Below the pieces are notes generated by a model, which made no database searches, was not told the DNA's origin, and saw only the letters and a list, made by a program, of their open reading frames with translations. A stretch of DNA of 64,000 nucleotides from Oscillospiraceae bacterium (GTDB lineage Bacteria > Bacillota > Clostridia > Oscillospirales > CAG-272). The position numbers and the translations under genes are program-made. Where the stretch lies: positions 55,883 to 119,882 of the forward strand of contig SVRT01000004.1 in the NCBI GenBank assembly GCA_015064685.1, given 5' to 3'. Shown here in pieces: positions 22,835 to 49,387 of this stretch. Numbering within the stretch: the first letter of the stretch is position 1; every line of letters starts with the position of its first letter.

Positions 22835-23092
22835 AAATTGGGGTTTTACGAATAGCCTTCTCCAGCGGAGAAGGGGGACCACCGAAGGTGGTGGATGAGG
22901 AGGTCGCCATTAGGATGTATTTCACGGGAGCGGTGTGGATTTTGTCTTTTCGCGCAAAGATTCTTATGCATCGGAACAAGGTCTTTACACGGACGCGAAG
23001 CCCACAAAAGGGCGACCTCCTCATCCACCGCTAACGCGGTCCCCCTTCCCCGCTGGGGAAGGCTAAAGGCACCGATAAATCAAAATTTGAAA
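22835..23092 (+). repeat. type II element: same termini, interior built from CCTTCYCC/GGRGAAGG and GGTGGATGAGGAGGTCGCC modules
   Basis: AAATTGGGGTTTTACGAA ... CACCGATAAATCAAAATTTGAAA. Arms carry sub-hairpins CCTTCTCCAGCGGAGAAGG, ACCACCGAAGGTGGT / ACCGCTAACGCGGT and CCTTCCCCGCTGGGGAAGG. Confidence 0.9.
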
Positions 23093-32968: not shown

Positions 32969-33014
32969 TCACGAAAATAAAAAATTTATATAATATTTGA
33001 AAGGAAACACGAAA

Positions 33015-33827: not shown

Positions 33828-33865
33828 TTCGATAGCATCGAATTTCTGAGAAAGGAGAACCCAAA

Positions 33866-35326: not shown

Positions 35327-35343
35327 GAAAGGAAGACAGAAGA

Positions 35344-36567
35344 ATGGATATTACAGCTTCCCAGATCGAAAGCATCGTTCGCTCCGTGATAAGCTCGATG
35401 GGCGGAACTGCTCCTCGCGCGCATGGTCCCATCCCCACAACTGCTCACGTTGCGATGCTTACCGATACAAAGAAGATAGAAGTTAAAGAGCTTCCCATTC
35501 CCCCTCTCGGTGACGATGATATTCTCATCAAGGTCGAGGGCGCGGGTATCTGCGGAACCGACGTTCACGAGTGGAAGTCCGATCCCTTCGGTCTCATCCC
35601 CGTAGTTCTCGGTCACGAGGGCACGGGTGAGGTCGTTGCAGTCGGAAAGAACGTCAAGGTCGACACCGCAGGAAAGCCCTTAAAGGTAGGCGACAAGATC
35701 GTTACCTCGGTTATCAGCTGCGGCGAATGCTACGCTTGCCGTATGGTTCCCGGCAGAACGAATCTCTGTGACAACCAGGGAGTTTTCGGACTCATCGGCG
35801 ACAAGAGAGGCGAGGCTGAGGGCAACAGAGTCAACGGTTGGTTTGCTGATTATATGGTGATCAAGGGCGGACTCGGAGCTACATATTTCCAGGTCAACGA
35901 GCTTGATCTTAAGCAGAGAATGATCCTCGAGCTTGCGTGCGTTTGCGTTCACGCGCTTGAGAGAGGTCAGAAAACAGGACTTCTCAACTTCGGCTCCAAG
36001 GTTCTCGTTCAGGGCTGCGGACCTGTTGGTCTCGTTATGATCACGGTTCTCCGCGCGGCAGGTATCAACCACATCATCGCAGTTGACGGAAACGAGGACA
36101 GACTCAAGGTTGCACAGAAGATGGGCGCAAAGACGACTATCTGCTTCCGCAGACCCGACGAGGATACTCTTGACAAGAGAGTTGCAAAGGTCAAGGCGGT
36201 CGCTAACGGCGTCGGCGTTGATTTCGCATATCAGTGCACGGGCGCTCCCGTAGCGGCAGCTGACATTTACAGCTACATCCGTCGCGGCGGCGGCATGTGC
36301 GAGATGGGCTTCTTCGTTAACAACGGCGAGTATCAGGTCAACCCCCACTTCGCTATGTGCAACAAGGAGATCGACATCGTAGGCTCTTGGGACTACTCCG
36401 CTGAGGACTACCCCAAGACCGTGGCATTCCTAAAGCAGTGCCGCGAGATGAACATCCCGATCGAGGATCTCATCACTCACTCCTTCCCTCTCGACAAGAT
36501 GAACGAGGCTATGGAGACAAACGTTGCTCAGGCAGGTATCAAGATCTGCTACATCAACGAGAACTGA
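35344..36567 (+). CDS. zinc-dependent (MDR family) alcohol dehydrogenase with N-terminal encapsulation-peptide-like extension
   Basis: N-terminus DITASQIESIVRSVISSMGG. Zn ligands in GICGTDVHEW and GHEGTGEV. Structural Zn motif CGECYACRMVPGRTNLC. Rossmann motif VQGCGPVG. Confidence 0.85.
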   Translation: MDITASQIESIVRSVISSMGGTAPRAHGPIPTTAHVAMLTDTKKIEVKELPIPPLGDDDILIKVEGAGICGTDVHEWKSDPFGLIPVVLGHEGTGEVVAVGKNVKVDTAGKPLKVGDKIVTSVISCGECYACRMVPGRTNLCDNQGVFGLIGDKRGEAEGNRVNGWFADYMVIKGGLGATYFQVNELDLKQRMILELACVCVHALERGQKTGLLNFGSKVLVQGCGPVGLVMITVLRAAGINHIIAVDGNEDRLKVAQKMGAKTTICFRRPDEDTLDKRVAKVKAVANGVGVDFAYQCTGAPVAAADIYSYIRRGGGMCEMGFFVNNGEYQVNPHFAMCNKEIDIVGSWDYSAEDYPKTVAFLKQCREMNIPIEDLITHSFPLDKMNEAMETNVAQAGIKICYINEN

Positions 36568-36586
36568 CATATCGGGGTGACCGAAT

Positions 36587-36919
36587 ATGGCAGCACTCGG
36601 TATGATAGAGGTCTACGGCTACACGACCTCGATAATAGTTGCGGACACCGTGGCAAAGACGGCGGACGTAAAAGTCGTAGCCATTGACAAGAACAAGCCC
36701 GCAAATGCGGATGCTTGTCCCGTACCGCTGGTTATGGTAGTCAAGTTTATGGGTAACGCAGGCGCGGTCCAGTCGGCTCTCGACGCGGGAGTAGCTGAGG
36801 CGGAGCGTCGCGGACTCTACATCACCTCGAAGATGATCGCGGGTCTTGACGATCAGGTACAGTGGTTCGCAGATCTTACCGCAACGGGTAAGGATAAATT
36901 CAGAAACCTCGACAAATAA
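36587..36919 (+). CDS. BMC domain shell protein (divergent BMC-H)
   Basis: ALGMIEVYGYTTSIIVADTVAKTADVKVV is the BMC (Pfam00936-type) signature, with an internal insertion. Confidence 0.8.
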   Translation: MAALGMIEVYGYTTSIIVADTVAKTADVKVVAIDKNKPANADACPVPLVMVVKFMGNAGAVQSALDAGVAEAERRGLYITSKMIAGLDDQVQWFADLTATGKDKFRNLDK

Positions 36920-36975
36920 GTCGGGAGAAATAAACAAGTTTAAAAAATATTAGAAATAAAAAGGAGAAAACAATC

Positions 36976-37251
36976 ATGAATGAAGCACTCGGAATGGTAG
37001 AGACCAGAGGACTTGTAGCTGCAATCGAGGCAGCAGATGCTATGGTAAAGGCAGCAAACGTACAGCTTATCGGCTCTGAGAAGATCGGTAGCGGACTCGT
37101 ATCCGTTATGGTTCGCGGCGACGTTGGCGCAGTTAAGGCTGCAGTTGAGGCCGGCGGCGCAGCAGCAGCTCGTCTCGGCGAGGTTGTTGCAACTCACGTT
37201 ATCCCCAGACCCCACACAGACGTTAACAAGCTCCTCCCCACACTCGGTTAA
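36976..37251 (+). CDS. BMC-H shell protein (PduA/EutM-like)
   Basis: [29 protein letters not shown]...VIPRPH is a canonical hexamer shell sequence. AAGGAG RBS. Confidence 0.95.
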
Positions 37252-37273
37252 TTTTTGTAAGACAAAAATTAAC

Positions 37274-37382
37274 GTGAAATTTGTCCTTTGGACAAGTGAA
37301 ATATTGCTACGCAATGTGAAATACGCCTTCGGCGTGTGAAATGTCGCTTGCATACAAGCTACATGAATATTTGCGAACGCAA
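37274..37382 (+). repeat. array of five GTGAAAT + variable hairpin units between two shell genes
   Basis: GTGAAAT-TTGTCCtttGGACAA, GTGAAAT-ATTGCtacGCAAT, GTGAAAT-ACGCCttcGGCGT, GTGAAAT-GTCGCTTGcataCAAGCTAC, ATGAATAT-TTGCgaacGCAA. It is preceded by the hairpin TTAATTTTTGT-aag-ACAAAAATTAA (37248-37272). Confidence 0.85.
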
Positions 37383-37428
37383 CGGGAAGCTTGTCCAAGG
37401 GCAGATCAATCTATTTAGGAGACAGGCT

Positions 37429-37710
37429 ATGGAAAATGCAATTGCATTGCTTGAGGTTCAAGCTATGGTAACGGCTATCGTCGGTCTTGACGCTATGGTC
37501 AAGGCTGCTAACGTAAAGCTCATCCACGTTGAAAAGCGTCTGGGTGGCAGACTCGTTACGGTCGTCGTTGAAGGCTCAGTCTCGGCTGTCACTGCCGCAC
37601 TTGAGGCGGGAGTCGAGGCCGCCAAAGCTGTCGGTCGTGTTGCGTGCGCAGAGGTAATCGCACGTCCGCATGCCGACATTATGAGATTTATTAAAACCGA
37701 TAAGGTTTGA
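37429..37710 (+). CDS. BMC-H shell protein
   Basis: ATG at 37429 (TAGGAGAC RBS). [32 protein letters not shown]...VIARPH. The track start at 37336 is a GTG inside the hairpin array. Confidence 0.9.
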   Translation: MENAIALLEVQAMVTAIVGLDAMVKAANVKLIHVEKRLGGRLVTVVVEGSVSAVTAALEAGVEAAKAVGRVACAEVIARPHADIMRFIKTDKV

Positions 37711-37823
37711 GTTGAATTTTTCCGTCTTACGGCGTTGCTCCTCAAAAGCGGCTCGACTTACGCAGGTAAGTCATCACCCGGGCTTTTGCGGTGCGCCTTG
37801 TCAGGCGAAAAAAATTCCAACTC
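37709..37823 (+). repeat. multi-hairpin intergenic cluster closed by a long-range stem
   Basis: GAGTTGAATTTTT ... AAAAATTCCAACTC encloses the hairpins CCGTcttACGG, GACTTACgcagGTAAGTC, CAAAAGC...GCTTTTG and CGCCTtgtcAGGCG. Confidence 0.7.
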
Positions 37824-37895
37824 AATTAACAACAAAAAAATCGGGTTATTCCCGTTAAAATTTAAAAAAATTTATCCAAAAAGGAGATTTTAACT

Positions 37896-38171
37896 ATGAA
37901 CGAAGCATTAGGAATGGTTGAGACCAGAGGTCTCGTAGCAGCGATCGAGGCAGCAGATGCTATGGTTAAGGCTGCAAACGTACAGCTTATCGGCTCTGAG
38001 AAGATCGGTAGCGGACTCGTTTCCGTTATGGTTCGCGGCGACGTTGGCGCTGTAAAGGCTGCTGTTGAGGCAGGCGGCGCAGCTGCAGCTAACCTCGGTG
38101 AGGTTGTTGCAACTCACGTTATTCCCCGTCCTCACACCGACGTTAACAAGCTTCTCCCCACACTCGGCTAA
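37896..38171 (+). CDS. BMC-H shell protein (near-identical paralog of 36976-37251)
   Basis: 91 aa differing from the 36976 product at one residue in the given translations (ARLGE vs ANLGE). The DNA differs at many synonymous sites. Confidence 0.95.
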
Positions 38172-38189
38172 TATAAGTCGAAGCAAGTG

Positions 38190-38295
38190 GCGCGCTTTGC
38201 GCGCAACGCGTTTCCTGCCCGATCTTCGGGCAGGAAACGGGAGATTGTTTCAATATGAAGATTACCGAGCCCTATCGGCACGCTTCATATTGAAA
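38190..38295 (+). repeat. three strong hairpins between shell gene and pduL
   Basis: GCGCGCtttGCGCGC (38190-38204). GTTTCCTGCCC-gatcttc-GGGCAGGAAAC (38210-38238). TTTCAATATGAAG...CTTCATATTGAAA (38248-38295). None is followed by a U-tract. Confidence 0.75.
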
Positions 38296-38327
38296 TAATC
38301 GTACTTTAATCGAAAGGAAACAGAAAA

Positions 38328-38999
38328 ATGAGCATTTCAAATGTTGAGATCGAAGCTATCGTCAAAAAAATAGTTTCCGAAATGAACGGCGGCTCTCAGA
38401 ATGCCTCCTCACCCGCAAAAACCGGCTACGAAATTCCCGTTGGAATCTCCAACAGACACATTCATCTGACACAGGAGCATCTTGAGATACTTTTCGGCAA
38501 GGGATATACCCTTACACACTTAAAGGATCTCTCCCAGCCCGGTCAGTACGCTTGCAAGGAGACCCTCACCATCGTCGGTCCCTCCATGCGCTCGATCGAG
38601 GGTGTTCGCGTGCTCGGTCCTCTCCGTCGCGCAAGCCAGGTAGAGATCTCGGTCACGGATTCCTACGTTCTCAAGGTCAAGCCCCCCGTCCGTGAGTCGG
38701 GTAAGCTCCAGGGCTCCGCTCCCATCACCATCATAGGTCCTAAGGGTATAGTTCAGCTTAGTGAGGGCTGCATAATCGCAAACCGTCACATCCACATGTC
38801 TCCCGACGATGCCGCTCACTTTGGCGTTAAAGACGGAGATTACATCGACGTTGATGCTACTACGGGAACAAAGCGCACACGCTGGTTTGACGTTCAGGTC
38901 CGCGTTCACAAGGACTTCCGTCTTGAAATGCACGTTGATACAGACGACGCGAACGCAGTTGGATTCAAGAACGGATCTACCGTTGTCCCGGTCAAATAA
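38328..38999 (+). CDS. pduL: phosphate propanoyl/acetyltransferase PduL with N-terminal encapsulation peptide
   Basis: Two PduL repeats (PVGISNRHIHLTQEHLEILFG and IIANRHIHMSPDDAAHFGVKDGD). N-terminus ISNVEIEAIVKKIVSEM. Confidence 0.9.
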   Translation: MSISNVEIEAIVKKIVSEMNGGSQNASSPAKTGYEIPVGISNRHIHLTQEHLEILFGKGYTLTHLKDLSQPGQYACKETLTIVGPSMRSIEGVRVLGPLRRASQVEISVTDSYVLKVKPPVRESGKLQGSAPITIIGPKGIVQLSEGCIIANRHIHMSPDDAAHFGVKDGDYIDVDATTGTKRTRWFDVQVRVHKDFRLEMHVDTDDANAVGFKNGSTVVPVK

Positions 39000-39017
39000 T
39001 TATTTGAGGTAAAGAAG

Positions 39018-39278
39018 ATGTTAAGAGGAAAAGTAATAGGAAATATCGTTTCGACAAACAAGCTCGACAAGCTCGTTGGCTTTAAGTTCCTTGAAATACA
39101 GCTTATCGAAAACACAAAGCTCACAGACAAGTACATCGTCGCAGTTGACCGTACTGTAAGCGCGGGAATCGGCGAAGAAGTTCTTATCACGACCGGAAGC
39201 GGTGCGAGAATGGCACTTTGCGACGAGAGCTGCCCGATCGACGCTGTCGTCGTCGGAGTTGTCGACAAAAATCAATAA
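39018..39278 (+). CDS. BMC-P pentameric vertex protein (EutN/CcmL/PduN family)
   Basis: 86 aa. MLRGKVIGNIVSTNKLDKLVGFKFLEIQ...AVVVGVVD is typical of the EutN family. Confidence 0.9.
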   Translation: MLRGKVIGNIVSTNKLDKLVGFKFLEIQLIENTKLTDKYIVAVDRTVSAGIGEEVLITTGSGARMALCDESCPIDAVVVGVVDKNQ

Positions 39279-39369
39279 TCAATTGCAAAATAAACCCGTT
39301 GTTTATTTTTGATTTAAAAAGCACAAAAATCATAAACTGTAAACCGTTTTTACGGCGAAAGGCAGGCAA

Positions 39370-40692
39370 ATGTCAAACATAGATCTTAAGGCATTGCTGC
39401 AGAATGCAGGCATCGTAGGTGCGGGCGGCGCAGGCTTCCCTACCTATGCAAAGCTCTCGGACGACGCGGATCTTCTCTGTGTCAACTGCTCCGAGTGTGA
39501 GCCTTTGATGTATACCGACTTCATCCTCAACCGCGAGGAGATGACGAAAATAGTCAAGGGTGCCGAGCTCATTATGGCGGCAAGCAACATAAAGCATACA
39601 TATCTTGCGATCAAGGTCCATCGCGCCGAGGCGCTCGGATATGACGACGGTCAGGTGCTTGGAGAAAACGTCTCGGTAAAGTATCTGCCGAGCGTCTACC
39701 CCATCGGTGACGAGATCGGACTTATCTACGAGACCACGGGAAGACTTATCAAGGCGGGCAACCTACCGATAACCAAGGGAGTTATCGTTATGAACGCCGA
39801 GACGGTCTACAACGTCTACGAGGCGATCGCAAACGGACGCCCCGTGACCGAAAAGTGGGTCACAGTTGCGGGCGATATTCCCGAAAAATTCTTAATAAAG
39901 ACACCCATCGGCATGAGAGTGTCGGAAATTCTTAGAAAGCTCGGCATCAAGGTCGACTCGGATCACGTTATGATCGAGGGCGGACCCTCTATGGGCTCTA
40001 TCGTCTCTCCCGACAAGGCTGTCATCAGAAAAACGACGAAATCAATCCTTATTCTCCCCAAGACCACGCGTTGCGTTGAGAATAAGCAGACGAACATAGA
40101 CGATATGCTCCGTCGCGCCGCATCCGCGTGCTGCGGATGCACAAGATGCACTGAGATGTGCCCCCGATATCAGCTTGGATACCCCATCGAGCCTCATAAG
40201 CTCATCCGCGCCGCTCTCAACAGCGCCGCAACCGATTATCCCGAGCTTATCGCGACCGCATCGCTCTGCTGCTCCTGCGGAGTCTGCGCAGAGGTCTGCT
40301 GTCAGGACATCTCCCCGAAGGACGTTATTTTGAGCCTCAAGGGAATCCTCGCGAAGAATAAGATAAAGTTCGTCGCGGACAAGGATTATCCCGTCAATTC
40401 CGACCGTCCTTACCGTATGATCCAATCGGGCAAGTGGAAGGATATGCTCGGAGTACTTAAATTTGACGCTATCCCGACATACGTTCCAAAGAAAATGAAG
40501 GCGGAGCGAGTGGAGATACTCACCTCCCAGCACATCGGTGCGCCGTCTATCCCCTCCGTCAAGGTCGGAGACACGGTAAAGGAGGGCGACCTCATCGCCA
40601 CTGCGGGACAGGGACTCTCTGTTCCTCAGTACGCATCGATCTCGGGTAAGGTCGTATCCTGCGACCCCACCAAGATCGTAATAGAAGCATAA
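39370..40692 (+). CDS. PduS-like / RnfC-like flavin and 4Fe-4S oxidoreductase
   Basis: GIVGAGGAGFPTYAKL (NuoF/RnfC-type nucleotide site). Two ferredoxin motifs (CCGCTRCTEMCP and CCSCGVCAEVCC). C-terminal barrel-sandwich-like KVGDTVKEGDLIA. Confidence 0.8.
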   Translation: MSNIDLKALLQNAGIVGAGGAGFPTYAKLSDDADLLCVNCSECEPLMYTDFILNREEMTKIVKGAELIMAASNIKHTYLAIKVHRAEALGYDDGQVLGENVSVKYLPSVYPIGDEIGLIYETTGRLIKAGNLPITKGVIVMNAETVYNVYEAIANGRPVTEKWVTVAGDIPEKFLIKTPIGMRVSEILRKLGIKVDSDHVMIEGGPSMGSIVSPDKAVIRKTTKSILILPKTTRCVENKQTNIDDMLRRAASACCGCTRCTEMCPRYQLGYPIEPHKLIRAALNSAATDYPELIATASLCCSCGVCAEVCCQDISPKDVILSLKGILAKNKIKFVADKDYPVNSDRPYRMIQSGKWKDMLGVLKFDAIPTYVPKKMKAERVEILTSQHIGAPSIPSVKVGDTVKEGDLIATAGQGLSVPQYASISGKVVSCDPTKIVIEA

Positions 40693-40732
40693 ATCGGCAT
40701 TATCGCATTAATATAGAAAGGTATACATCAGA

Positions 40733-41278
40733 ATGTATCAGGCAGTTGGTGTAATTGAGCTTAAAAGCATTTCAAAGGGTATAGAGGCGACCGACGCGGC
40801 TCTCAAGAGCGCGGGCGTTACCCTCATTTCCGCTCGCGCGGCTTGTCCAGGCAAGTTTGAGATGATCCTCACGGGTACTATATCAAACGTGACGAGCGCG
40901 GTCGAGCACGTCAAGAGCCGCTTTGACGACAAGCTCGTTGACGTCTCCATTATGGGACGTATCGACGAGCAGGTCATCACCGCTCTTTTCGGCACGGTAC
41001 TTACGGAAAAGAAAGGAAGCCTCGGCGTAATAGAGACCTTCTCTGCTGCTTCCATCATCAAGGCGGCTGATATCGCCGTCAAGACTGCAAAGGTCGAGAT
41101 ATTCGAGCTTCGCGCCTCCCGCGGTATGGGCGGCAAGGGCATTTGCCTTATCACCGGCGAGGTCGGCGACGTGACCGCCGCAGTCGAGGCAGGAAGCCAG
41201 CACGCAAAGGATCAGGGCGTTTTCTGCAACAGCGCAGTTATTCCCGCCCCCCACGAGCTTCTCTGGAGTCAGATCTAA
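40733..41278 (+). CDS. BMC-T tandem-domain shell protein (PduT-like)
   Basis: Two BMC domains in 181 aa (AVGVIELKSISKGIEATDAALKSAGV and SLGVIETFSAASIIKAADIAVKTAKV). Cys in ARAACPGKF sits where PduT binds its Fe-S cluster. Confidence 0.85.
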   Translation: MYQAVGVIELKSISKGIEATDAALKSAGVTLISARAACPGKFEMILTGTISNVTSAVEHVKSRFDDKLVDVSIMGRIDEQVITALFGTVLTEKKGSLGVIETFSAASIIKAADIAVKTAKVEIFELRASRGMGGKGICLITGEVGDVTAAVEAGSQHAKDQGVFCNSAVIPAPHELLWSQI

Positions 41279-41280
41279 GG

Positions 41281-41326
41281 GGATGCGAGAGGATGCGAGG
41301 GGATGCGAAGGGATGCGAGGAGATGC
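41281..41326. repeat. 10-bp tandem repeat GGATGCGAGG x ~4.5
   Basis: GGATGCGAGA GGATGCGAGG GGATGCGAAG GGATGCGAGG AGATGC, starting 3 nt after the PduT-like stop. Confidence 0.9.
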
Positions 41327-41330
41327 ATTT

Positions 41331-41602
41331 GGGGAACTTTTTTAGGAAAAGTTCCCCAAGCCCCTCAAAACCTTCCAAAAAATTGGTTTGGTTTAAGACT
41401 TTTTATTGAACTAAACCGTGTAGCACTTGCATAGTCTCTCTGCTACCGTGTTGCAAGTGTATTTTGAGTCGTTAAATTAATAAATTAATAAATTAATAAA
41501 TTAATAAATTAATAAATTAATAAATTAATAATAGAGACCTCCTCGGAGTCCTTTTCAGGAAAGTTTTTGGAGGTTTGGAACCTTTTTTCAAAAAGGTTCC
41601 AA
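41331..41602 (+). repeat. type V long palindromic element / leader L1 upstream of the GRE gene
   Basis: Left end GGGGAACTTTTTTAGGAAAAGTTCCCC + CCCCTCAAAACCTTCC. Right end GGAAAGTTTTTGGAGG + TTGGAACCTTTTTTCAAAAAGGTTCCAA. The ends are mutually inverted. It is paralogous to 44163-44412. Confidence 0.75.
41474..41530. repeat. octanucleotide microsatellite (AAATTAAT) x7
   Basis: Seven perfect tandem AAATTAAT units inside leader L1, about 85 nt upstream of the GRE start. Confidence 0.95.
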
Positions 41603-41614
41603 GAAAGGCTTCTT

Positions 41615-44146
41615 ATGAGTCAAATTAAATTTGTTATTGAAAAAAGCCCGAGAATACAGAGGCTTATAGATCATTTATACGCAAAGATGCCCGAGATCGA
41701 GGCAGACCGCGCCGAGCTTATAACCGAGAGCTACAAGGCAACGGAGGGTCTTCCGATCATCAGGCGCCGTTCTGCCGCGTTCAAGCACATTATGGAGAAT
41801 ATTCCGATAGTCATCCGTCCCGAGGAGCTTATCGTGGGTAGTAACTCGATAGCTCCCAGAGGATGCCAGACCTTCCCCGAGTATTCGTTTGAGTGGCTTG
41901 AAAAGGAGTACGACACCGTTGCCACACGTGAGGCTGACCCCTTCTACATCTCTCCCGAGACCGTCGAGAGACTCAAGAAGGTCTACCCTTACTGGAAGGG
42001 CAAGACCGTCAGCGATCTCGCGGCGCAGAGCATGGACGAGAAGGTGCTTGACGTATTCCTCAATCACGGCATTTTCACGGTAGGAAACTACTTCTACAAC
42101 GGAATAGGACACATAAACGTAGATTACGCGAAGGTTATTAACTCGGGTCTTGAGGGCGTAATGGCAGAGTGCCGCGAGGCTCTCTCAAAGCTCTACATAG
42201 GCAGCGGAGATTATCTGCGCCGCAAGGCTTTCCTTGAGTCGGCGATCGAGAGCTGCGAGGCTGTAATTACCTATGCTAAGAGATACAGCGCACTCGCGAA
42301 AAAGGAAGCCGACGCTTGCAGTGACTCTACCCGTCGCGCAGAGCTTATCCGCATAAGCGAGACCTGCGCTCACGTTCCCGCAAAACCCGCGCGCTCCTTC
42401 TACGAGGCTTGCCAGGCGTTCTGGTTCATTCAGCAGCTCCTTCAGTGTGAGTCGAGCGGACACTCGATCTCTCCCGGACGCTTTGACCAGTATATGTATC
42501 CTCTCTTCAAAAAGGACATTGACAGCGGCAAGGAAACCCTTACGTCCGCTCAGGAATATATCGATTGCATCTGGGTCAAGCTCAATGACCTTAACAAGGT
42601 CCGCGACGCGGCTTCCGCAGAGGGATTTGCGGGCTACGGTCTCTTCCAGAACCTCATCGTAGGCGGTCAGGACGAGGACGGTGTTGACGTTACAAACGAG
42701 CTTTCCTATATGTGCATGGAGGCGACGGTTCACGTTCGTCTTCCTCAGCCCTCTCTTTCCATCCGCGTATGGAACAAGACCCCCCACGATCTTCTCATCA
42801 AGGCGGCGGCGGTCACACGCGAGGGCTTGGGTGTTCCCGCATTCTATAACGACGAGGTCATCATCCCCTCGATCATGTCGAGAGGTCTTACCCTTCAGGA
42901 TGCGCGCGACTACTGTATAATCGGTTGCGTTGAGCCTCAGAAGGGCGCAAGAACAGACGGCTGGCACGATGCGGCATTCTTCAATATGTGCCGTCCGCTC
43001 GAGCTTGTATTTTCTAACGGATACGACAAGGGCGAGCTTATCGGTCTCCAGACCGGTGACGTCGAGAAGATGACCACATTCGAGGAATTCTTCGAGGCTT
43101 ACAAGGCTCAAGAGCTTTATATGATAGAAATGATGGTCCACGCCGACAACGCGGTCGACTACGCGCACAGCGTTCGCTGTCCTCTCCCCTTCCAGTCCTG
43201 CCTCTGCAACGACTGTATCGAGCGCGGAATCTCGCTCCAGGAGGGTGGCGCGCACTACAACTTCACAGGACCTCAGGGCTTCGGTATCGCAAATATGACT
43301 GACGCGCTCCTCGCTATGAAGACACTCGTATTCGAGGAAAAGAAGGTCACAATGGCGGAGATGAAGCAGGCGCTTGCCGACAACTTCGGCAAGGGACTTA
43401 TCCCCAAGAAGGCGCTTGAGCTTACGACCGAGGTTGCCCGTCAGCTCGATGCTAACGGCATACAGGTAAACGAGGATATGATCCGCGCGATCTATCAGAA
43501 CATCACGACCGCCGAGAGCGTTCCCGCCGACAGAAAGGCGAGATATCAGGAGATACTTGATATGATCGCTGCTCTTCCCAAATACGGAAACGACATTCCC
43601 GAGGTAGACGCGTTCGCACGCGAGGTCGGAAACACGTACACAAAGCCCTTTGAAAACTTCACAAACAACCGCGGCGGTATGTTCCAGGCAGGTCTTTACC
43701 CTGTTTCGGCTAACGTTCCGCTCGGATATCAGACCGGCGCAACGCCTGACGGCAGACTTGCTTACACTCCCATTGCGGACGGTGTAGGCCCCGCTTCGGG
43801 CAGAGACGTCAAGGGTCCGACCGCAACGGCTAACTCCGTCGCGCGTCTCGACCACGGTATCGCCTCAAACGGTACTCTCTTTAACCAGAAATTCCACCCC
43901 TCCGCGCTCGCGGGTATGGGCGGACTTGAAAAATTCGTCGCTTACCTTCGCGGTTACTTCGACCAGAAGGGTATGCACGTTCAGTACAACGTAGTTTCTA
44001 AGGAAACATTGCTCGACGCGCAGAAGAACCCCGAAAAGTATAAGACCCTCGTGGTCCGCGTCGCAGGCTACAGCGCACTCTTTACTACCCTTTCCCGTTC
44101 GCTCCAGGACGACATCATCAACCGTACCGAGCAGGCGGGATTGTGA
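41615..44146 (+). CDS. glycyl radical enzyme, diol-dehydratase-like (probable 1,2-propanediol dehydratase)
   Basis: Glycyl radical motif VVRVAGYSALF near the C-terminus. Thiyl loop IIGCVEPQ with Glu at Cys+2 and Asp at Cys+14 (HDAA), as in B12-independent diol/glycerol dehydratases. ATG at 41615; the upstream TTG extension is translation of a palindrome. Confidence 0.85.
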   Translation: MSQIKFVIEKSPRIQRLIDHLYAKMPEIEADRAELITESYKATEGLPIIRRRSAAFKHIMENIPIVIRPEELIVGSNSIAPRGCQTFPEYSFEWLEKEYDTVATREADPFYISPETVERLKKVYPYWKGKTVSDLAAQSMDEKVLDVFLNHGIFTVGNYFYNGIGHINVDYAKVINSGLEGVMAECREALSKLYIGSGDYLRRKAFLESAIESCEAVITYAKRYSALAKKEADACSDSTRRAELIRISETCAHVPAKPARSFYEACQAFWFIQQLLQCESSGHSISPGRFDQYMYPLFKKDIDSGKETLTSAQEYIDCIWVKLNDLNKVRDAASAEGFAGYGLFQNLIVGGQDEDGVDVTNELSYMCMEATVHVRLPQPSLSIRVWNKTPHDLLIKAAAVTREGLGVPAFYNDEVIIPSIMSRGLTLQDARDYCIIGCVEPQKGARTDGWHDAAFFNMCRPLELVFSNGYDKGELIGLQTGDVEKMTTFEEFFEAYKAQELYMIEMMVHADNAVDYAHSVRCPLPFQSCLCNDCIERGISLQEGGAHYNFTGPQGFGIANMTDALLAMKTLVFEEKKVTMAEMKQALADNFGKGLIPKKALELTTEVARQLDANGIQVNEDMIRAIYQNITTAESVPADRKARYQEILDMIAALPKYGNDIPEVDAFAREVGNTYTKPFENFTNNRGGMFQAGLYPVSANVPLGYQTGATPDGRLAYTPIADGVGPASGRDVKGPTATANSVARLDHGIASNGTLFNQKFHPSALAGMGGLEKFVAYLRGYFDQKGMHVQYNVVSKETLLDAQKNPEKYKTLVVRVAGYSALFTTLSRSLQDDIINRTEQAGL

Positions 44147-44162
44147 TTGGGAAGGAGGCGTT

Positions 44163-44412
44163 CGAGAACCCTTTTTTGAGGAAAAAGGGTTCTCGAGCTC
44201 TCCCAAAAACCTTCAAGCATATTTTATTTCAGCTAAGACGGATTATCGATTTATACCGTGGCGCACGTGCGTAGCTCTCGGGCTTACGTGTTGCGAATCA
44301 AATTGTTATTATTGCTCTTTACGGTCAATATCCGCTTTCACGGGAAAGTTTAGCTTTGTCCGTTTGAAAGTTTTTGGAATTCTTAAAACCTTTTTTCCAA
44401 AAAGGTTTTAAG
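44163..44412 (+). repeat. type V long palindromic element / leader L2 upstream of the activase gene
   Basis: Left end CGAGAACCCTTTTTTGAGGAAAAAGGGTTCTCG + CTCCCAAAAACCTTCAA. Right end TTGAAAGTTTTTGGAAT + CTTAAAACCTTTTTTCCAAAAAGGTTTTAAG. It shares a central ACCGTG.NGCAC.TGC.TAG block with L1. Confidence 0.75.
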
Positions 44413-44439
44413 CCGTCGGAGACAAGAAAGGAGGCTGTC

Positions 44440-45234
44440 GTGAAAGACATATACAACCAGACGGGACGCATATTCGACATACAGAGATATTCTCTTCATG
44501 ACGGTCCCGGAATCAGAACCATAGTATTTTTAAAGGGCTGCTACCTCAGATGTAAATGGTGCTGCAACCCCGAATCGCAGGAATATGCGATACAGGAGAT
44601 GACCCGTGCGGGTAAAAAAGAGATCATGGGTCGCGACGTTACGGTCGGCGAGCTTATGGACGAAATAAGCAAGGACAGGATCTACTACGCGCGAAGCGGC
44701 GGCGGAATCACGCTTTCGGGCGGCGAGTGTATGGCTCAGCCCGATTTCTCGGAGGCTCTTTTGCGCGCCTGCCACGATTACGGCTTCAATACCGCCATCG
44801 AGACAACGGCGTTCGCAAGTCACGACGTAGTCGCGAGACTTCTTCCACACGTTGACCATTTCCTTATGGACATCAAGCACATGGACTCGCACAAGCACGA
44901 GCAGTTCACGGGCAAGCCTAACGAACAGATACTAAAGAACGCGAGATTTATCGCGGAAAACGCGCGCGATCTTATCATCCGCGTACCTACCGTTCCTACC
45001 TTCAACGCGACTCCCGATGAAATTTCGGCGATCGCGAGGTTTGCTTCAAGCCTGCCGGGCGTCAAGGAGCTTCACCTGCTCCCCTATCACCGTCTCGGAC
45101 AGGACAAGTACACGGGACTCGGCCGAAATTATCTTATGGACGGCATCGAGCCGCCGACGAACGATCTAATGGCTGAGCTTTTAAAGGTTGCAAAGAGAGC
45201 CGCCCCAAATCTGCACGTACAGATAGGAGGCTAA
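44440..45234 (+). CDS. glycyl radical enzyme activating enzyme (radical SAM)
   Basis: GTG at 44440 with an AAGGAGG RBS 5 nt upstream. GRIFDIQRYSLHDGPGIRTIVFLKGCYLRCKWCCNPES (CxxxCxxC). Confidence 0.9.
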   Translation: MKDIYNQTGRIFDIQRYSLHDGPGIRTIVFLKGCYLRCKWCCNPESQEYAIQEMTRAGKKEIMGRDVTVGELMDEISKDRIYYARSGGGITLSGGECMAQPDFSEALLRACHDYGFNTAIETTAFASHDVVARLLPHVDHFLMDIKHMDSHKHEQFTGKPNEQILKNARFIAENARDLIIRVPTVPTFNATPDEISAIARFASSLPGVKELHLLPYHRLGQDKYTGLGRNYLMDGIEPPTNDLMAELLKVAKRAAPNLHVQIGG

Positions 45235-45237
45235 AAC

Positions 45238-45705
45238 ATGAAAAGATTTCTTGTTTTGTTGCTCGCCGTTCTGGCAGTATTTATACTCTTCGTTTCATGT
45301 GACGGCAAAAAAGCTGCCGAAACAGAAAGCAAAACTGAAGCCGACACCGAATCAGTTTCCAAGTCTGACGCAATATACGGCACGTATATTCGAGAAAACG
45401 ACAACGGATATGATTCCTTTTCGATCACTCTGCACGAGGACGGAACCTATACGTACTACGAGACGATGATCAGCAGTCACTTGGGACACGGTGAATATAC
45501 CATTGAAGGCAATCTGATCACCCTGATCGACACGCAGATCCCCACATACAGCAGCTCCGCTACTTATGAATTTAAATTCGAATACCGCGACGGCAAGCTT
45601 ATATATCTCGCTGCAAAGTCCGATCAGTTTATGTACGTACATATTCCCGACGGCGCGGAATTTGAGCGCTTCGAGATTGAAGTAGAAACGAAAAAACCAG
45701 AATAA
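45238..45705 (+). CDS. predicted lipoprotein of unknown function inside the BMC operon
   Basis: Signal peptide plus lipobox (LAVFILFVSC). The mature part is beta-rich (YGTYIRENDNGYDSFSITLHEDGTYTYYE). The start is 3 nt after the activase stop. Confidence 0.6.
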   Translation: MKRFLVLLLAVLAVFILFVSCDGKKAAETESKTEADTESVSKSDAIYGTYIRENDNGYDSFSITLHEDGTYTYYETMISSHLGHGEYTIEGNLITLIDTQIPTYSSSATYEFKFEYRDGKLIYLAAKSDQFMYVHIPDGAEFERFEIEVETKKPE

Positions 45706-45729
45706 CAATACCCCATTCGGAGGTTAACA

Positions 45730-46101
45730 ATGTCTAATTCATTTGAATTTCAAGATAAAATGCGAATAGTTCAGGAGCTGGTGCCGGGTCGTCAGATCAC
45801 TCTGGCGCACATCATCGCCAATCCCGACCCCACGCTCTATCAGAAGCTCGGACTTGATCCCAAGCTTGACTATGAGAAGGCTGCCATCGGTGTACTCACC
45901 GTCAGCCCCGCCGAAACCGCGGTCATTACAGCCGATATAGCGCTCAAATCCTCGGGTGCAGACCTCGGATTCGTCGACCGTTTTTCGGGTACGCTCATAA
46001 TCACCGGCAAGGTCGCGGAGGTCGAGGCTTCGTTTACGGCTATTACCGAGTATTTCAGAAATACACTCAAATTCACAGTCTGCGAGATGACGAGAACCTG
46101 A
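45730..46101 (+). CDS. circularly permuted BMC shell protein (PduU/EutS-like)
   Basis: RIVQELVPGRQITLAHIIANPDP...AIGVLTVSPAETAVITADIALKSSGADLGFVDRFSGTLIITG is the typical PduU/EutS pattern. Confidence 0.85.
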   Translation: MSNSFEFQDKMRIVQELVPGRQITLAHIIANPDPTLYQKLGLDPKLDYEKAAIGVLTVSPAETAVITADIALKSSGADLGFVDRFSGTLIITGKVAEVEASFTAITEYFRNTLKFTVCEMTRT

Positions 46102-46532
46102 TGAAAAAGCTCATTTTGATGGGTAGAGTTGCCGCGGGCAAGACAACGCTCACGCAAGCCCTCAAGGGCGAGCAGCTCCACTACTGCAAAACGCAGTACA
46201 TAAATTATATGGACACTATAATAGACACGCCCGGCGAATACACCGAGGTTCACACCCTGGCGGCGGCTCTGGCGGTCTACTCATACGAGGCGGACGTGAT
46301 AGGTCTTGTCGTTAGCGCGAACGAGCCATTCTGCGTTTTTCCGCCCAACTGCACTCACCACGTTAACCGCGACGTTATAGGAATAATTTCCGGAATTGAC
46401 AAGGAAGATGCAAATATTCCGCTTGCGGAGCGCTGGCTGCTTAACTGCGGAGTGCAAAAGGAAAAGTTATTCTACGTCAGCTCATATACCCGCGAGGGAC
46501 TTGATACAATAATCGATTACCTAAATAAATAA
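46101..46532 (+). CDS. EutP/PduV family small GTPase-like protein
   Basis: MKKLILMGRVAAGKTTLTQAL P-loop and DTPGEY. 143 aa. The start overlaps the upstream stop (TGATG). Confidence 0.8.
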   Translation: MKKLILMGRVAAGKTTLTQALKGEQLHYCKTQYINYMDTIIDTPGEYTEVHTLAAALAVYSYEADVIGLVVSANEPFCVFPPNCTHHVNRDVIGIISGIDKEDANIPLAERWLLNCGVQKEKLFYVSSYTREGLDTIIDYLNK

Positions 46533-46557
46533 TTATGACCGTTTCGTAATTTGTGAG

Positions 46558-46608
46558 GGCGACCTCCACAGCCTATGCAAGCGGTCCCCCTTCCCCGCTG
46601 GGGAAGGC
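46558..46608. repeat. fragment of a type II element arm
   Basis: GGCGACCTCC...GCGGTCCCCCTTCCCCGCTGGGGAAGGC matches the right arm of 22835-23092. No termini are present. Confidence 0.7.
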
Positions 46609-46621
46609 GAAAGGGGAAAAT

Positions 46622-47413
46622 ATGTCAAAGACCAAAACCATCTGCTTTGCCAACAACAAGGGCGGAAGCGGAAAATCCACCACCTGCGCGAACATCGGCT
46701 ATTCGCTCTCGACGCTCGGCAAACGCGTGCTTCTCATCGACGCTGATATGCAGATGAACCTCACGCTCCAGTTTTTTGACGACGAGACCTCGCTTGAAAT
46801 GGCGAAAAGCGGCAAAAATATTTACGTCGGCGTGACAGAACAAAAGGATCTTTCGGATTTTGTCGTGCCGACCGAATACGAAGGGCTTGATATGATCCCC
46901 TCCTCGACTCTTATGAGCGGGATCGAGTTCCAGCTCTTTACAAAGTGGCAGAGAGAATTTATTCTCCGTCAGGGACTTAAGTCGATCAAGGAATCGGGCA
47001 AGTATGATTACATACTCATCGACGCGCCTCCCACGCTCGGCTGCTGGGTAATGAACATCATGTGCGCGTCTGATTACCTCGTAATTCCCGTTGAGGCATC
47101 GCCCTGGGGGCTTTTCGGACTTGCGAATATGTTTGAATTCTACGAGCAGGTCAAGCTGATATCCCCCACGCTTAATCTTATGGGAATTGCTATCACGAAG
47201 GCGAGCGAACGCAAGAATTACTTCAAGCAGACCGTCGAAACACTCTCGTCGCTTGATAACGTAAGACTCTTCGAAACAATAATCCGCATCGACTCAAACG
47301 TCGAGTGGTCGCAGGATAACTCAAAGCCCGTTATGGTCTATAAGAGATCAAGCCGCGCGGCACAGGAATATTTTGAAATGGCAAAGGAGATCGAAAAATA
47401 TGTCGATAGGTAA
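46622..47413 (+). CDS. ParA/Soj/MinD-family P-loop ATPase
   Basis: ATG at 46622 (AAAGGGGAAAA RBS). Deviant Walker A NNKGGSGKST with the signature Lys. LLIDADMQ and YILIDAPP motifs. Confidence 0.85.
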   Translation: MSKTKTICFANNKGGSGKSTTCANIGYSLSTLGKRVLLIDADMQMNLTLQFFDDETSLEMAKSGKNIYVGVTEQKDLSDFVVPTEYEGLDMIPSSTLMSGIEFQLFTKWQREFILRQGLKSIKESGKYDYILIDAPPTLGCWVMNIMCASDYLVIPVEASPWGLFGLANMFEFYEQVKLISPTLNLMGIAITKASERKNYFKQTVETLSSLDNVRLFETIIRIDSNVEWSQDNSKPVMVYKRSSRAAQEYFEMAKEIEKYVDR

Positions 47414-47804
47414 GTCCAGCATCACAAAGAGAGTCGCAAAGGTCGCAGAGCCCGAGGCGGCAAAGGAAAAGAACATAGCTCCCGAGCTTGTCGCAACGGT
47501 TGCGGCAGCACCAAAGGTAGCACCAAAGGCAGAGCCAAAGAAGGCTCCCGCGAAGAAAGCCTCTTCCGAGGCGGCAAAGAAGCCCGCAGCCTCCACCGCG
47601 AAAAAGCCTGCGGCAAAGAAGCCTGCAACGCCCAAGAAGGAGACACTCACTCCTCCAACCGAGGCGCCCTCGACACCCTTGGTCGACAGCACGGTGCTCG
47701 CAAACGTCTCGCCCGAGACTGTTGCCGCCGTTACGGGTCACAAGGAAAACAGCGGATTTGAAAAGGTCCAGCTCGGCGAAAAAATGCCCGTACATTTACT
47801 TTAA
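47400..47804 (+). CDS. lysine/alanine/proline-rich, probably disordered basic protein (candidate ParA partner)
   Basis: The ATG at 47400 overlaps the ParA 3' end by 14 nt, with an AAGGAG RBS. MSIGKSSITKRVAKV... is followed by AKKPAA/PKKAPAKK-type repeats. A terminator follows immediately. No recognisable folded domain. Confidence 0.6.
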   Translation: MSIGKSSITKRVAKVAEPEAAKEKNIAPELVATVAAAPKVAPKAEPKKAPAKKASSEAAKKPAASTAKKPAAKKPATPKKETLTPPTEAPSTPLVDSTVLANVSPETVAAVTGHKENSGFEKVQLGEKMPVHLL

Positions 47805-47810
47805 TATCAC

Positions 47811-47840
47811 AAAACGGAGAGATTTTTCTCTCCGTTTTTG
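47811..47840 (+). terminator. intrinsic terminator
   Basis: AAAA-CGGAGAGA-TTTTT-CTCTCCG-TTTTTG. An identical copy lies at 49085-49114. Confidence 0.85.
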
Positions 47841-47846
47841 TTTGTC

Positions 47847-47898
47847 AAATTGCGGTTTACGGGGATTGTTCGTCTCCCCACTAAATCAAAATTTGAAA
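47847..47898 (+). repeat. 52-bp solo element: termini only, interior missing
   Basis: AAATTGCGGTTTACGGGG-ATTGTTCG-TCTCCCCACTAAATCAAAATTTGAAA. It retains only the last 8 nt (ATTGTTCG) of the type I arm. Confidence 0.8.
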
Positions 47899-47969: not shown

Positions 47970-49079
47970 ATGAAAAAATATCAGGCATCAATACACCCCG
48001 ACGACGACGCGCATTACGAAAAGATGGGGCTTGTCAAGGACAAGATCGAGCTTTGGGAGGACGCTATGCGTACCGACGGCTCGAAGGGTACCTACGAATG
48101 GTGGTACTACGACTCACACTACCCCGACGGCACTATTCTCGTTATCTTTTTCTTCTCAAAATCCCCCATCGCCGTCGACGGTCCCATAAAGCCGACCGCG
48201 ACCGCCGAGCTTACCCTTCCCGACGGAACGAAATATTCCGAGGAGGTATACGCGAGCATAGAGGACAGCTTTTACTCAAAGGAAAAATGCGATATAAGGA
48301 TCGGCGAGTGCAAAACGAGCGGCGATCTCTCTCACTACGACGTAGTATTCAAGGGCGAGAGGATCCAAGCCACGCTTTCGCTTGACGGCACTGTCCCCGC
48401 TTGGCGTTCGCAGACGGGCAGTATACTATTTGGAGACAACGAGGAACATTATTTTGCTTGGCTCCCCGCAATTCCCGAGGGACGCGCGGTCGCTGACGTC
48501 ACGTATGAAGGTAATTCCCTTCACCTCGAGGGCAGCGGCTACCACGACCACAACTGGGGCAATATCTCAATGCTTTCACTTATGCACCATTGGTATTGGG
48601 GCAGAGCCAAGATCGGAGATTACAAGGTCATATCTGCTTGGATCACGGGCGAGCGCAAGTACGGCTACAAGGATTTTGACGTCTTTATGCTTGCAAAGGG
48701 CAATAAGATCATCGGTGATAACTCAAATCACACTCTCAGATTTCTTTCGACCGACGAGTATACAGACGAGCATACGGGCAAGCCCGTCTACAACAATGTA
48801 GTGTACGAATACCTGACACCCTATGGCGAGAATTACCGTATCACGTATTCCCGCAAGGGAGATATCGCCTCGCAGAGGTTTATCGACCTACTCCCGCCCG
48901 TCCTTAAGATTGGAGCGAAGATCGTGGGCTTCTCGGGAGCCTACCTCAGATTCTTCGGTGAGGCTTCGATCGAAAGGATCGAAAACGGCGTGACCGTCGA
49001 AAAGGTCACCGAGCCGAGCGCCGTCTGGGAGCTGATGTATTTCGGTAAATCCGCCGCAGATAAAAAATACAAAAAATAA
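47970..49079 (+). CDS. AttH/CrtC-like lipocalin-fold protein (function unknown)
   Basis: GTYEWWYYDSHYPDG and GSGYHDHNWGN resemble the hydroxyneurosporene-synthase/AttH family as I recall it. 369 aa, no signal peptide. Confidence 0.45.
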   Translation: MKKYQASIHPDDDAHYEKMGLVKDKIELWEDAMRTDGSKGTYEWWYYDSHYPDGTILVIFFFSKSPIAVDGPIKPTATAELTLPDGTKYSEEVYASIEDSFYSKEKCDIRIGECKTSGDLSHYDVVFKGERIQATLSLDGTVPAWRSQTGSILFGDNEEHYFAWLPAIPEGRAVADVTYEGNSLHLEGSGYHDHNWGNISMLSLMHHWYWGRAKIGDYKVISAWITGERKYGYKDFDVFMLAKGNKIIGDNSNHTLRFLSTDEYTDEHTGKPVYNNVVYEYLTPYGENYRITYSRKGDIASQRFIDLLPPVLKIGAKIVGFSGAYLRFFGEASIERIENGVTVEKVTEPSAVWELMYFGKSAADKKYKK

Positions 49080-49084
49080 ACGCA

Positions 49085-49114
49085 AAAACGGAGAGATTTT
49101 TCTCTCCGTTTTTG
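49085..49114 (+). terminator. intrinsic terminator (copy of 47811-47840)
   Basis: AAAAA-CGGAGAGA-TTTTT-CTCTCCG-TTTTTG. Confidence 0.85.
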
Positions 49115-49120
49115 TTTGTC

Positions 49121-49387
49121 AAATTGGGGTTTGTCAGTGTGATAAGCCTTCCCCAGCGGGGAAGGGGGACCGCGTTAGCGGTGGATGAGGAGGTCGCCCT
49201 TTCAAGGGCTTTTCGTCTGTAAAAAAGCTTTGTTTCGTTGCAAAAGAATCCTTATGCCACAAAACAAAATCCACGATACACCCGTGGCGCGCGTCCTAAT
49301 GGCGACCTCCTCATCCACCACCTTCGGTGGTCCCCCTTCTCCGCTGGAGAAGGCTATTCGCAACAGTTAGACAAATCAAAATTTGAA
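49121..49387 (+). repeat. type II element, interior inverted relative to copy at 22835-23092
   Basis: AAATTGGGGTTTGTCAG ... TTAGACAAATCAAAATTTGAA. The CCTTCCCC/ACCGCGTTAGCGGT arm is on the left here and on the right in the other copy. The centre is its reverse complement. Confidence 0.9.

Follow-up and report, generated by a model that had tools for sequence, protein, structure and literature searches.

How catabolic bacterial microcompartments (BMCs) are placed in the cell and inherited is an open question. To our knowledge, the McdAB system of carboxysomes is the sole dedicated BMC positioning machinery to have been characterized. The question arises for a 64,000-nucleotide stretch of contig SVRT01000004.1 from an Oscillospiraceae bacterium (assembly GCA_015064685.1; hereafter the window, with coordinates counted from its first letter), where an operon for a glycyl-radical metabolosome ends in two genes, encoding a ParA-type ATPase and a small, basic, low-complexity protein that we call the adaptor. 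Both genes are real and under constraint, and their synteny, overlap and operon-terminal position are strictly conserved. We lean towards the view that the two proteins form an McdAB-like two-component positioning module for the operon's own metabolosome.

The ParA-adaptor pair at the end of a GRM5 operon

The plus strand of the window from 31775 to 47804 constitutes one GRM5-type glycyl-radical microcompartment (GRM) locus, a type associated with fucose and rhamnose. Comparison with the published definition of GRM5 (PMC6325248) identified a glycyl-radical enzyme (GRE) with a short activase, a class II aldolase, a lactaldehyde reductase of the Zn-type alcohol dehydrogenase kind and PduS/PduT homologues, as well as an aldehyde dehydrogenase, PduL, BMC-H and BMC-P. 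The locus and its 3′ end comprise the following features.

31775–47804, plus strand: the whole locus; from 5′ to 3′, acetate kinase, class II aldolase, aldehyde dehydrogenase and Zn-type alcohol dehydrogenase; four BMC-H genes, PduL-type phosphotransacylase (PTAC) and EutN; PduS-like, PduT-like, GRE and short activase; lipoprotein-like open reading frame (ORF), PduU/EutS-like shell protein, PduV, ParA and the adaptor
45730–46101, plus strand: PduU/EutS-like BMC shell protein, circularly permuted (Pfam BMC, 5.6e-12)
46101–46532, plus strand: PduV/EutP-family small GTPase (Pfam PF10662, 5.2e-47, full length)
46622–47413, plus strand: ParA/MinD-family ATPase, 263 residues from its ATG (Pfam AAA_31, 2.8e-51; CbiA, 2e-18; also ParA and MipZ)
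46658–46681, plus strand: deviant Walker A motif KGGSGKST, ParA residues 13–20, read from the sequence
47384–47389, plus strand: ribosome-binding site AAGGAG of the adaptor gene, within the coding sequence of ParA, 10 nucleotides before the ATG at 47400
47400–47804, plus strand: adaptor ORF, 134 residues, start MSIGKSSITKRVAKV, overlapping the 3′ end of ParA by 14 nucleotides
47811–47838, plus strand: intrinsic terminator closing the BMC operon, with a 12-bp stem, 5 GC pairs and a T-rich tail

These features bear out the initial annotation, made from the letters of the window, as to the Walker A motif of a ParA/MinD ATPase, the 14-nucleotide overlap of the next gene, its own ribosome-binding site and the terminator behind it.

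A scan of one genome per species in GTDB recovered 51 adaptor loci, all from metagenome-assembled genomes of uncultured gut Clostridia, Eubacteriales or Oscillospiraceae. The adaptor overlaps ParA by exactly 14 nucleotides in every species-level locus that retains any upstream DNA (50/50). Where more upstream DNA is present, the order PduU-like, PduV, ParA, adaptor is invariable (46/46), with PduV directly before ParA and the block, which begins with the PduU-like gene, lying 3′ of the GRE and its activase. The recurrence of a ParA gene and a K/A/P-rich ORF behind pduV, proposed as a check on the initial annotation, holds for every related adaptor locus with enough DNA. Loci with 10 kb of upstream DNA have an entire GRE operon collinear with that of the window. 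The most distant members, detected by profile search (L055, L058, L060/L061 and L062), show the identical placement, on contigs of up to 400 kb with sporulation and housekeeping genes. The genes 3′ of the adaptor vary among loci.

The spacing around the pair points to a single transcript. PduV and ParA are separated by 13–24 nucleotides in 22 loci, and PduV overlaps ParA by 4–8 nucleotides in L058 and L060. In the window this spacer measures 89 nucleotides (46533–46621), and a scan of it found no terminator-like site, in agreement with what had been noted at the outset; only three candidates, all weak, were found among 22 long spacers of this kind. A search for a separate ParA promoter gave only weak 9/12 promoter-like matches, all within coding sequence and none in the spacer. 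Behind the adaptor, a hairpin followed by a T-run lies within 120 nucleotides of the stop codon in 45 of 50 related loci, and the hairpin sequences are unrelated to one another. The coupling and the terminator pattern together indicate that the BMC transcription unit ends in this pair, which is conserved and translationally coupled.

The adaptor, the ATPase and their surroundings

Profile searches of the adaptor against Pfam, NCBIfam and PDB returned no match (best PDB hit, ribosomal uS19 at E 0.19), and no ParB/Srx or helix-turn-helix domain was found in it with Pfam or NCBIfam. The partner of about 134 residues had been described at the outset as devoid of a recognizable ParB, helix-turn-helix or ribbon-helix-helix domain, and that description holds. 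A word-indexed search retrieved 327 full-length homologues, none with a functional name; since these exist and both ends of the protein are invariant, the adaptor is not a chance low-complexity frame. The family is narrow: a profile search of 1.84 billion cluster representatives gave 83 clusters at E ≤ 1e-3, at least one of which is a false positive (a 6790-residue eukaryotic repeat protein). The family alignment divides the adaptor of the window as follows.

47400–47441, plus strand: residues 1–14, MSIGKSSITKRVAK, invariant basic N-terminal peptide
47466–47513, plus strand: residues 23–38, EKNIAPELVATVAAAP, second conserved motif, consensus EKNIAPELVATxAAAP
47514–47681, plus strand: residues 39–94, hypervariable A/K/T/P/E low-complexity linker, delimited by alignment and composition
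47682–47804, plus strand: residues 95–134 and the stop codon, conserved C-terminal module VDSTVLANVSPETVAAVTGHKENSGFEKVQLGEKMPVHLL, delimited by alignment

The N-terminal peptide has the consensus MPIGKDSI[TQKE][KTN]RVAK, in which M1, I3, G4, K5, S7, I8, R11, V12, A13 and K14 are invariant in all 51 species-level sequences, and carries a net charge of +2 to +4. By analogy with the partners of other ParA-type ATPases, we propose that residues 1–14 are a ParA-binding, ATPase-stimulating peptide. At the opposite end, the consensus is [EDQ]-K-V-x-[IVL]-G-x-x-[ML]-P-x-[Y/F/H]-L-[LM], with G(−9), P(−5) and L(−2) invariant and position −3 occupied by Tyr in 21, Phe in 17 and His in 13 of the 51 sequences; this module is proposed, again by analogy, to be the cargo (BMC) binding motif. 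The shortest members (75–79 residues) retain the N-terminal peptide, the second motif and the last ~15 residues, and the most distant ones retain the N-terminal peptide and an ending of the form ...MP.YLL.

Within the second motif, A27, E29, L30, V31, T33, A35 and A36 are invariant in the family alignment, and a divergent branch is devoid of the motif. Residues 25–34 (47472–47501; N-I-A-P-E-L-V-A-T-V) resemble residues 102–111 (47703–47732; N-V-S-P-E-T-V-A-A-V), and with both segments well conserved they probably represent an internal repeat. Minimal members keep the first copy along with the extreme C-terminus, and the divergent branch keeps only the second, which suggests that the two copies may be interchangeable binding motifs.

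The linker is hypervariable in both length (41–99 residues across the family) and sequence, and constant in composition: A 24%, K 19%, T 17%, P 12% and E 9%, with K, A, P, T, S or E making up 76–94% of its residues and not one aromatic among 3835. Its median net charge is +6, and the median isoelectric point (pI) of the whole adaptor is 9.7. AlphaFold2, run with a 34-sequence family alignment, predicted no fold (mean predicted local distance difference test score, pLDDT, 54; predicted template modelling score 0.12; pLDDT ~46–52 in the linker), and the sole predicted elements were an 8-residue helix (about residues 105–112) and a 3-residue helix near the C-terminus. The model and the alignment thus agree with the disorder, basic N-terminus and low-complexity region noted initially. 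Conserved pieces on an otherwise disordered protein would behave as short linear motifs on a flexible chain.

Several variants of the adaptor were encountered. Three family representatives (P0142, P0146 and P0154; 197–304 residues) carry an FtsK-gamma winged helix (PF09397, 1e-13 to 1e-18) between the N-terminal peptide and the linker, and for P0142 and P0154 both loci examined (L055 10001–10696 and L062 6641–7555) have the usual operon position. In a sub-branch (P0163 and P0187; L060 10001–10414), a Cys-rich stretch (VIGSDCAACGEC) is inserted immediately behind the N-terminal peptide; it may be an element that senses metal or redox state. The C-terminal module was also found fused to foreign N-termini, namely zinc ribbon, IF2_N, Mtd_N, helix-turn-helix or signal peptide (P0071, P0144, P0149, P0181, P0182 and P0189). 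Two of these fusions, P0071 and P0144, the only ones with contigs listed, lie on contigs of no more than 732 nucleotides, and the fusions are probably assembly chimeras formed through low-complexity DNA. A search of the window and the loci with the zinc-ribbon part of P0071, the only fusion N-terminus searched, found no counterpart. Were the fusions real, the C-terminal motif would serve as a targeting tag that can be moved between proteins.

The 49 orthologues of the ATPase are 61–94% identical, with conserved Walker A, A′ and B motifs; NNKGGSGKST (residues 11–20), LLIDADMQ and YILIDAPP are kept in 48–49 of the 49. Judging from these motifs, the ParA looks catalytically intact. Among solved structures, the nearest is that of the chromosomal ParA from Myxococcus xanthus (8RAY, 4e-34), followed by Soj proteins at ~5e-23, and no NCBIfam model was matched at cut-off. 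Nine positions between residues 193 and 245 are basic, invariantly so at K193, R197, K198, K202, R222, K241, K/R242 and R245 and nearly so at R215, and from these residues DNA binding by the ParA appears possible. No MinD-like C-terminal amphipathic membrane-targeting helix was seen by inspection; the C-terminus (...SRAAQEYFEMAKEIEKYVDR) is charged, and its last residue is an invariant Arg. ParA residues 224–229 (47291–47308) form a family motif, D-S-[T/N]-[I/V]-E-W, in which E228 and W229 are invariant; it sits where Soj/ParA has PRNVRLSE, the motif bearing the DNA-binding arginine.

The surroundings of the pair hold several repeats and passenger genes.

46556–46609, plus strand: copy of a dispersed repeat resembling repetitive extragenic palindromes (REP-like), hairpin CCCTTCCCC-GCT-GGGGAAGG, occupying most of the PduV-ParA spacer
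22856–22875, minus strand: REP-like repeat copy
23043–23062, plus strand: REP-like repeat copy
46588–46607, plus strand: REP-like repeat copy, the one in the spacer (46556–46609)
49147–49166, minus strand: REP-like repeat copy
49334–49353, plus strand: REP-like repeat copy

The REP-like repeat is ~55 bp long (GGGCGACCTCC...GGTCCCCCTTCCCCGCTGGGGAAGGC), and its five copies in the window compare with none expected by chance. Four of them form two inverted pairs, each 187 bp apart, giving the look of a miniature inverted-repeat transposable element; the spacer copy is solo. Its hairpin is followed by no T-tract, and the element is shared only with the closest relatives (L001, L011 and L002). Distant relatives have other palindromic repeats in the same spacer (for example ...CCTTCTTGAAAGAAGG...). 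The long PduV-ParA spacers, including that of the window, are filled with REP-like palindromes. The spacer repeat is a lineage-specific insertion, neither a terminator nor a ParA-specific regulator.

Downstream, the terminator and ~20 nucleotides behind it (AAAACGGAGAGATTTTTCTCTCCGTTTTTGTTTGTCAAATTG) recur as a near-identical direct repeat at 47806–47860 and 49083–49135, flanking a gene for a 369-residue protein (47970–49079) with weak matches to Diels-Alderase-N and carotenoid-hydratase-like families. Many relatives have an ArsR-family gene ~140–350 nucleotides 3′ of the adaptor, and the 369-residue gene was detected in none of the 51 related loci. Given the flanking repeat and its absence from relatives, this gene has the look of a cassette inserted with duplication of its target. 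Upstream, between the GRE activase and the PduU-like gene, lies an ORF for a 155-residue lipoprotein-like product with a signal peptide and Cys (45238–45705), an odd passenger for the operon of a cytoplasmic organelle that was detected in just three related loci (L001, L007 and L018). The rest of the window encodes metG, glycoside hydrolases, phosphofructokinase, ABC exporters, P-type ATPases and citrate synthase.

A proposed positioning module and its alternatives

We infer the motif-partner assignments, the matrix and the positioning outcome of the following scheme. On a matrix within the cell, in all likelihood the nucleoid, the ATPase would form dimers with ATP. The adaptor would be anchored to the microcompartment exterior by its conserved C-terminal motif, either directly on shell proteins or via the neighbouring PduU-like protein or PduV, and its N-terminal peptide would reach ParA dimers across the flexible A/K/T/P linker. 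Stimulation of ATP hydrolysis by this peptide would deplete ParA locally, and the resulting ParA gradients would keep compartments apart and distribute them to daughter cells. The McdAB-like role that the initial annotation had suggested for the end of the BMC operon draws support from the fixed position of the pair and from the architecture of the partner.

The neighbouring genes are consistent with an exterior location. The best PDB matches of the PduU-like protein are EutS (4axi, 5e-33) and PduU (3cgi, 1e-29). In the Pdu system, PduV reportedly binds the outward-facing β-barrel of PduU, and the two interact on the compartment exterior (PMC4315436); PduV has also been implicated in the spatial dynamics of Pdu compartments (PMC8262871). 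Given this reported interaction outside compartments, the last four genes of the operon may form an "exterior" block.

Several observations weigh against a positioning module of this kind. Cyanobacterial McdA (6NOO/6NON) matched the ParA of the window at E ~1e-13, over residues 3–189 only. The adaptor of the window contains no Trp at all, as the initial annotation had remarked for its C-terminus, and no family member examined has a C-terminal Trp; at position −3 the residue of the window protein is His (PVHLL) instead of Tyr, Phe or Trp. In M. xanthus ParA, mutation of R238 in the PRNVRL motif abolishes non-specific DNA binding (PMC12462528). When R238 was mapped to position 219 of the 8RAY chain, with the offset set by the D60A substitution, it aligned with N226 of the window ParA, and the 49 orthologues have T in 34, N in 7 and A in 6 cases. 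Because this position is non-basic, the nucleoid is not secured as the ParA matrix. A mirror-tree analysis with partial Mantel correlation against the adaptor C-terminus (23–42 related sequences, which does not allow the values to be interpreted) singled out no partner for this module: partial r was 0.44 for PTAC, 0.28 for the PduT-like protein, 0.22 for EutN, 0.12 for the PduU-like protein and −0.16 for PduV. All loci belong to one lineage with the same operon order, and they therefore amount to one long-maintained association (ParA identity down to 61%) rather than several independent ones. Finally, classical GRM5 loci of cultured organisms have not been described with ParA (PMC4207490), which makes the ParA-adaptor module an accessory.

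The loss of the arginine also lends itself to a different arrangement, in which the adaptor is a nucleoid tether: its basic linker or an FtsK-gamma domain would bind DNA, its C-terminus would hold the compartment and ParA would regulate or release the tether. The FtsK-gamma domain of the three representatives is bona fide and, in the two loci examined, belongs to a gene at the same operon position, and the lysine-rich linker and the high pI of the family point the same way, as do a match of one homologue to Pfam HC2 (histone H1-like, from precomputed annotation) and the name "DNA-binding protein HU-beta" given to another by one source. However, the net charge of the linker is modest for its ~76 residues (9% Glu, 17% Thr), some linkers have almost no net charge (minimum −1), and most members have no DNA-binding domain. 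McdB of H. neapolitanus binds no DNA, yet its McdAB system works (PMC12139897), and an adaptor spread over the whole nucleoid would stimulate ParA everywhere, flattening any gradient. We consider a tether of this kind unlikely, though it is the alternative with the most in its favour. A re-wired topology, in which the adaptor supplies the DNA contact through its lysine-rich linker (and FtsK-gamma in some members), the canonical arginine having been lost from ParA, and acts with a PduU-docked PduV so that two nucleoside triphosphatases jointly place the organelle, strikes us as similarly speculative and a shade more doubtful.

Two further alternatives fit poorly with the ParA coupling and the exclusive operon linkage. 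The pair may position or regulate another protein assembly or a chromosomal locus and share with the BMC genes only their regulation. ParA/MinD ATPases serve many cargos, and the sequence of the ATPase does not reveal which (PMC10241942); the tie of the C-terminal motif to BMC proteins is itself inferred, and the mirror-tree gave it no clear partner. Against this, the adaptor family is found nowhere but at the end of this operon type, the adaptor is translationally coupled to ParA and ParA in turn to PduV in many species, and gene neighbourhood is the usual predictor of cargo in the field (PMC12866334), so that we give a separate cargo little credence. Alternatively, the adaptor could be a luminal scaffold, encapsulated and bound to the shell by its C-terminal peptide in the manner of CsoS2, with ParA acting in assembly. 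A disordered, basic and repetitive protein with a conserved C-terminal peptide would suit this role, and the amphipathic helix at about residues 104–113 loosely recalls the N-terminal encapsulation peptides of the operon's aldehyde dehydrogenase, alcohol dehydrogenase and PTAC. This likeness is weak, however; the adaptor (93–151 residues) lacks the repeated motifs with which known scaffolds bind enzymes, and an invariant ParA-type N-terminal peptide and a 14-nucleotide overlap with ParA would make no sense for a protein enclosed in the shell. We regard a luminal scaffold as very improbable.

The initial annotation had held it equally possible that the pair is a remnant of a partition system from a plasmid or an integrative and conjugative element, a ParA and a small centromere-binding protein that landed beside the operon; despite the formal likeness to type Ib loci (small ParA, small partner with a flexible basic N-terminus) and the abundance of ParA-family matches on plasmids, we reject this reading as scarcely credible, because tblastn found no adaptor among 72,556 plasmids, the best ParA of that collection is only 40.6% identical (≤41%) and lies in a 2.6-Mb Acetoanaerobium replicon, paired with a 322-residue ParB-like protein, no ribbon-helix-helix, helix-turn-helix or other fold is predicted for the adaptor, no centromere-like iterated repeats occur around the pair (only coding low-complexity repeats), genes for replication, conjugation or integration are missing from the 64,000 nucleotides of the window, which like the large contigs carries housekeeping and sporulation genes and no mobile-element genes, and the position has been kept in more than 50 species, both ends of the adaptor being under purifying selection.

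With a positioning module as the preferred reading, the locus offers a testable candidate, consisting of a 263-residue ATPase and an adaptor of ~130 residues with three or four short motifs that can be mutated singly. Many fucose- and rhamnose-fermenting Clostridia of human and animal guts possess the module. If the reading is true, nucleoid- or ParA-based organelle positioning reaches beyond autotrophs to gut anaerobes, PduV, a protein of still uncertain role, becomes tied to a known positioning mechanism, and a second, non-homologous "luggage tag" pair becomes available for engineering the placement of metabolosomes.

Comparison with known systems

A literature search found no experimental work on any metabolosome ParA system, in keeping with the initial annotation, which knew of no characterized equivalent for glycyl-radical metabolosomes. 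The idea itself is not new: four papers propose an extension of McdAB-type systems to metabolosomes from gene neighbourhoods (PMC4207490, PMC8359340, PMC11321042, PMC13052382), and two of them report, bioinformatically, putative McdA/McdB-like genes near non-carboxysome BMC operons of the PDU and GRM types (MacCready 2021, PMC8359340; Basalla 2024, PMC11321042). Those McdB-like proteins are described as carrying Tyr or Phe among their final four or five positions, close to an acidic residue. Set against this description, and compared by description only, the adaptor family has Tyr or Phe at −3 in 38 of 51 sequences and Asp at −4 in 12 of 51. The searchable text of PMC8359340 and PMC11321042 contains no family definition, 14-nucleotide overlap, PduU/PduV link, internal repeat or FtsK-gamma variants. 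What the present analysis adds is the precise definition of a GRM5 adaptor family that is non-homologous to McdB, with its motif anatomy, the strict coupling of this family to ParA, PduV and PduU across more than 50 species, the FtsK-gamma variants, and the loss of the classical DNA-binding arginine from the ATPase.

PduU and PduV of the Pdu system belong to the two gene families that here lie immediately upstream of ParA. Salmonella pdu has neither ParA nor an adaptor; here the ParA module is added behind PduV. Deletion of ParA or MinD in Salmonella leaves Pdu positioning unchanged (PMC12866334).

Chromosomal ParABS systems (Soj/Spo0J; M. xanthus) include the closest solved relative of the ATPase. 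The motif with which ParB binds ParA is conserved, and L11, R13, L15, L18 and I19 matter in it (PMC12462528); the adaptor N-terminus, with its hydrophobic-Gly-Lys core (I-G-K), resembles this motif. In contrast to ParB, the adaptor has no ParB/Srx domain, helix-turn-helix or CTPase, the locus has no parS-like repeats, and the R238 equivalent of its ParA is T or N. Plasmid partition systems of type Ib, such as ParF-ParG of TP228, likewise combine a small ParA with a small partner, ParG, that stimulates the ATPase through a flexible tail at its N-terminus. ParG includes a folded ribbon-helix-helix domain that binds DNA, and its centromere contains repeats, whereas the adaptor has no predicted fold, no such repeats and a chromosomal operon location.

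With McdAB the pair shares its arrangement, in which a gene for a small partner comes after that for a ParA-type ATPase and both are encoded with a BMC operon. The differences are that the cargo would be a catabolic glycyl-radical metabolosome instead of a carboxysome, that the ParA is nearer to chromosomal ParA/Soj than to McdA, and that some adaptor variants contain FtsK-gamma. The adaptor has no detectable sequence homology to McdB, an A/K/T/P-rich linker, and Y/F/H at −3 with no Trp, and since it matches no family its relation to McdB can be argued from architecture only. Given the missing Trp and the lack of close relatedness to McdA and McdB, we have not filed the pair as a member of the McdAB families. 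Carboxysomal McdBs have an invariant C-terminal Trp that mediates carboxysome binding and that Tyr or Phe can partly replace (PMC11321042).

The build of the adaptor conforms to a pattern that partners of ParA/MinD ATPases generally follow: they contact the ATPase with a positively charged, disordered N-terminus and bind cargo with the remainder (PMC10241942). McdB needs its first 20 residues to bind McdA, and these residues suffice for binding, with K7 and hydrophobic residues at i, i+4 and i+8 being key (PMC12139897), and the adaptor has a counterpart to this pattern in I3-G4-K5...I8...R11-V12...K14. Like McdB, as described in the cited sources (PMC8359340, PMC11321042, PMC12139897), the adaptor combines a basic N-terminal peptide of ~14–20 residues with a short conserved C-terminal motif that has an aromatic key position (Tyr, Phe or His in the adaptor family), and like McdB it is largely disordered and of low complexity.

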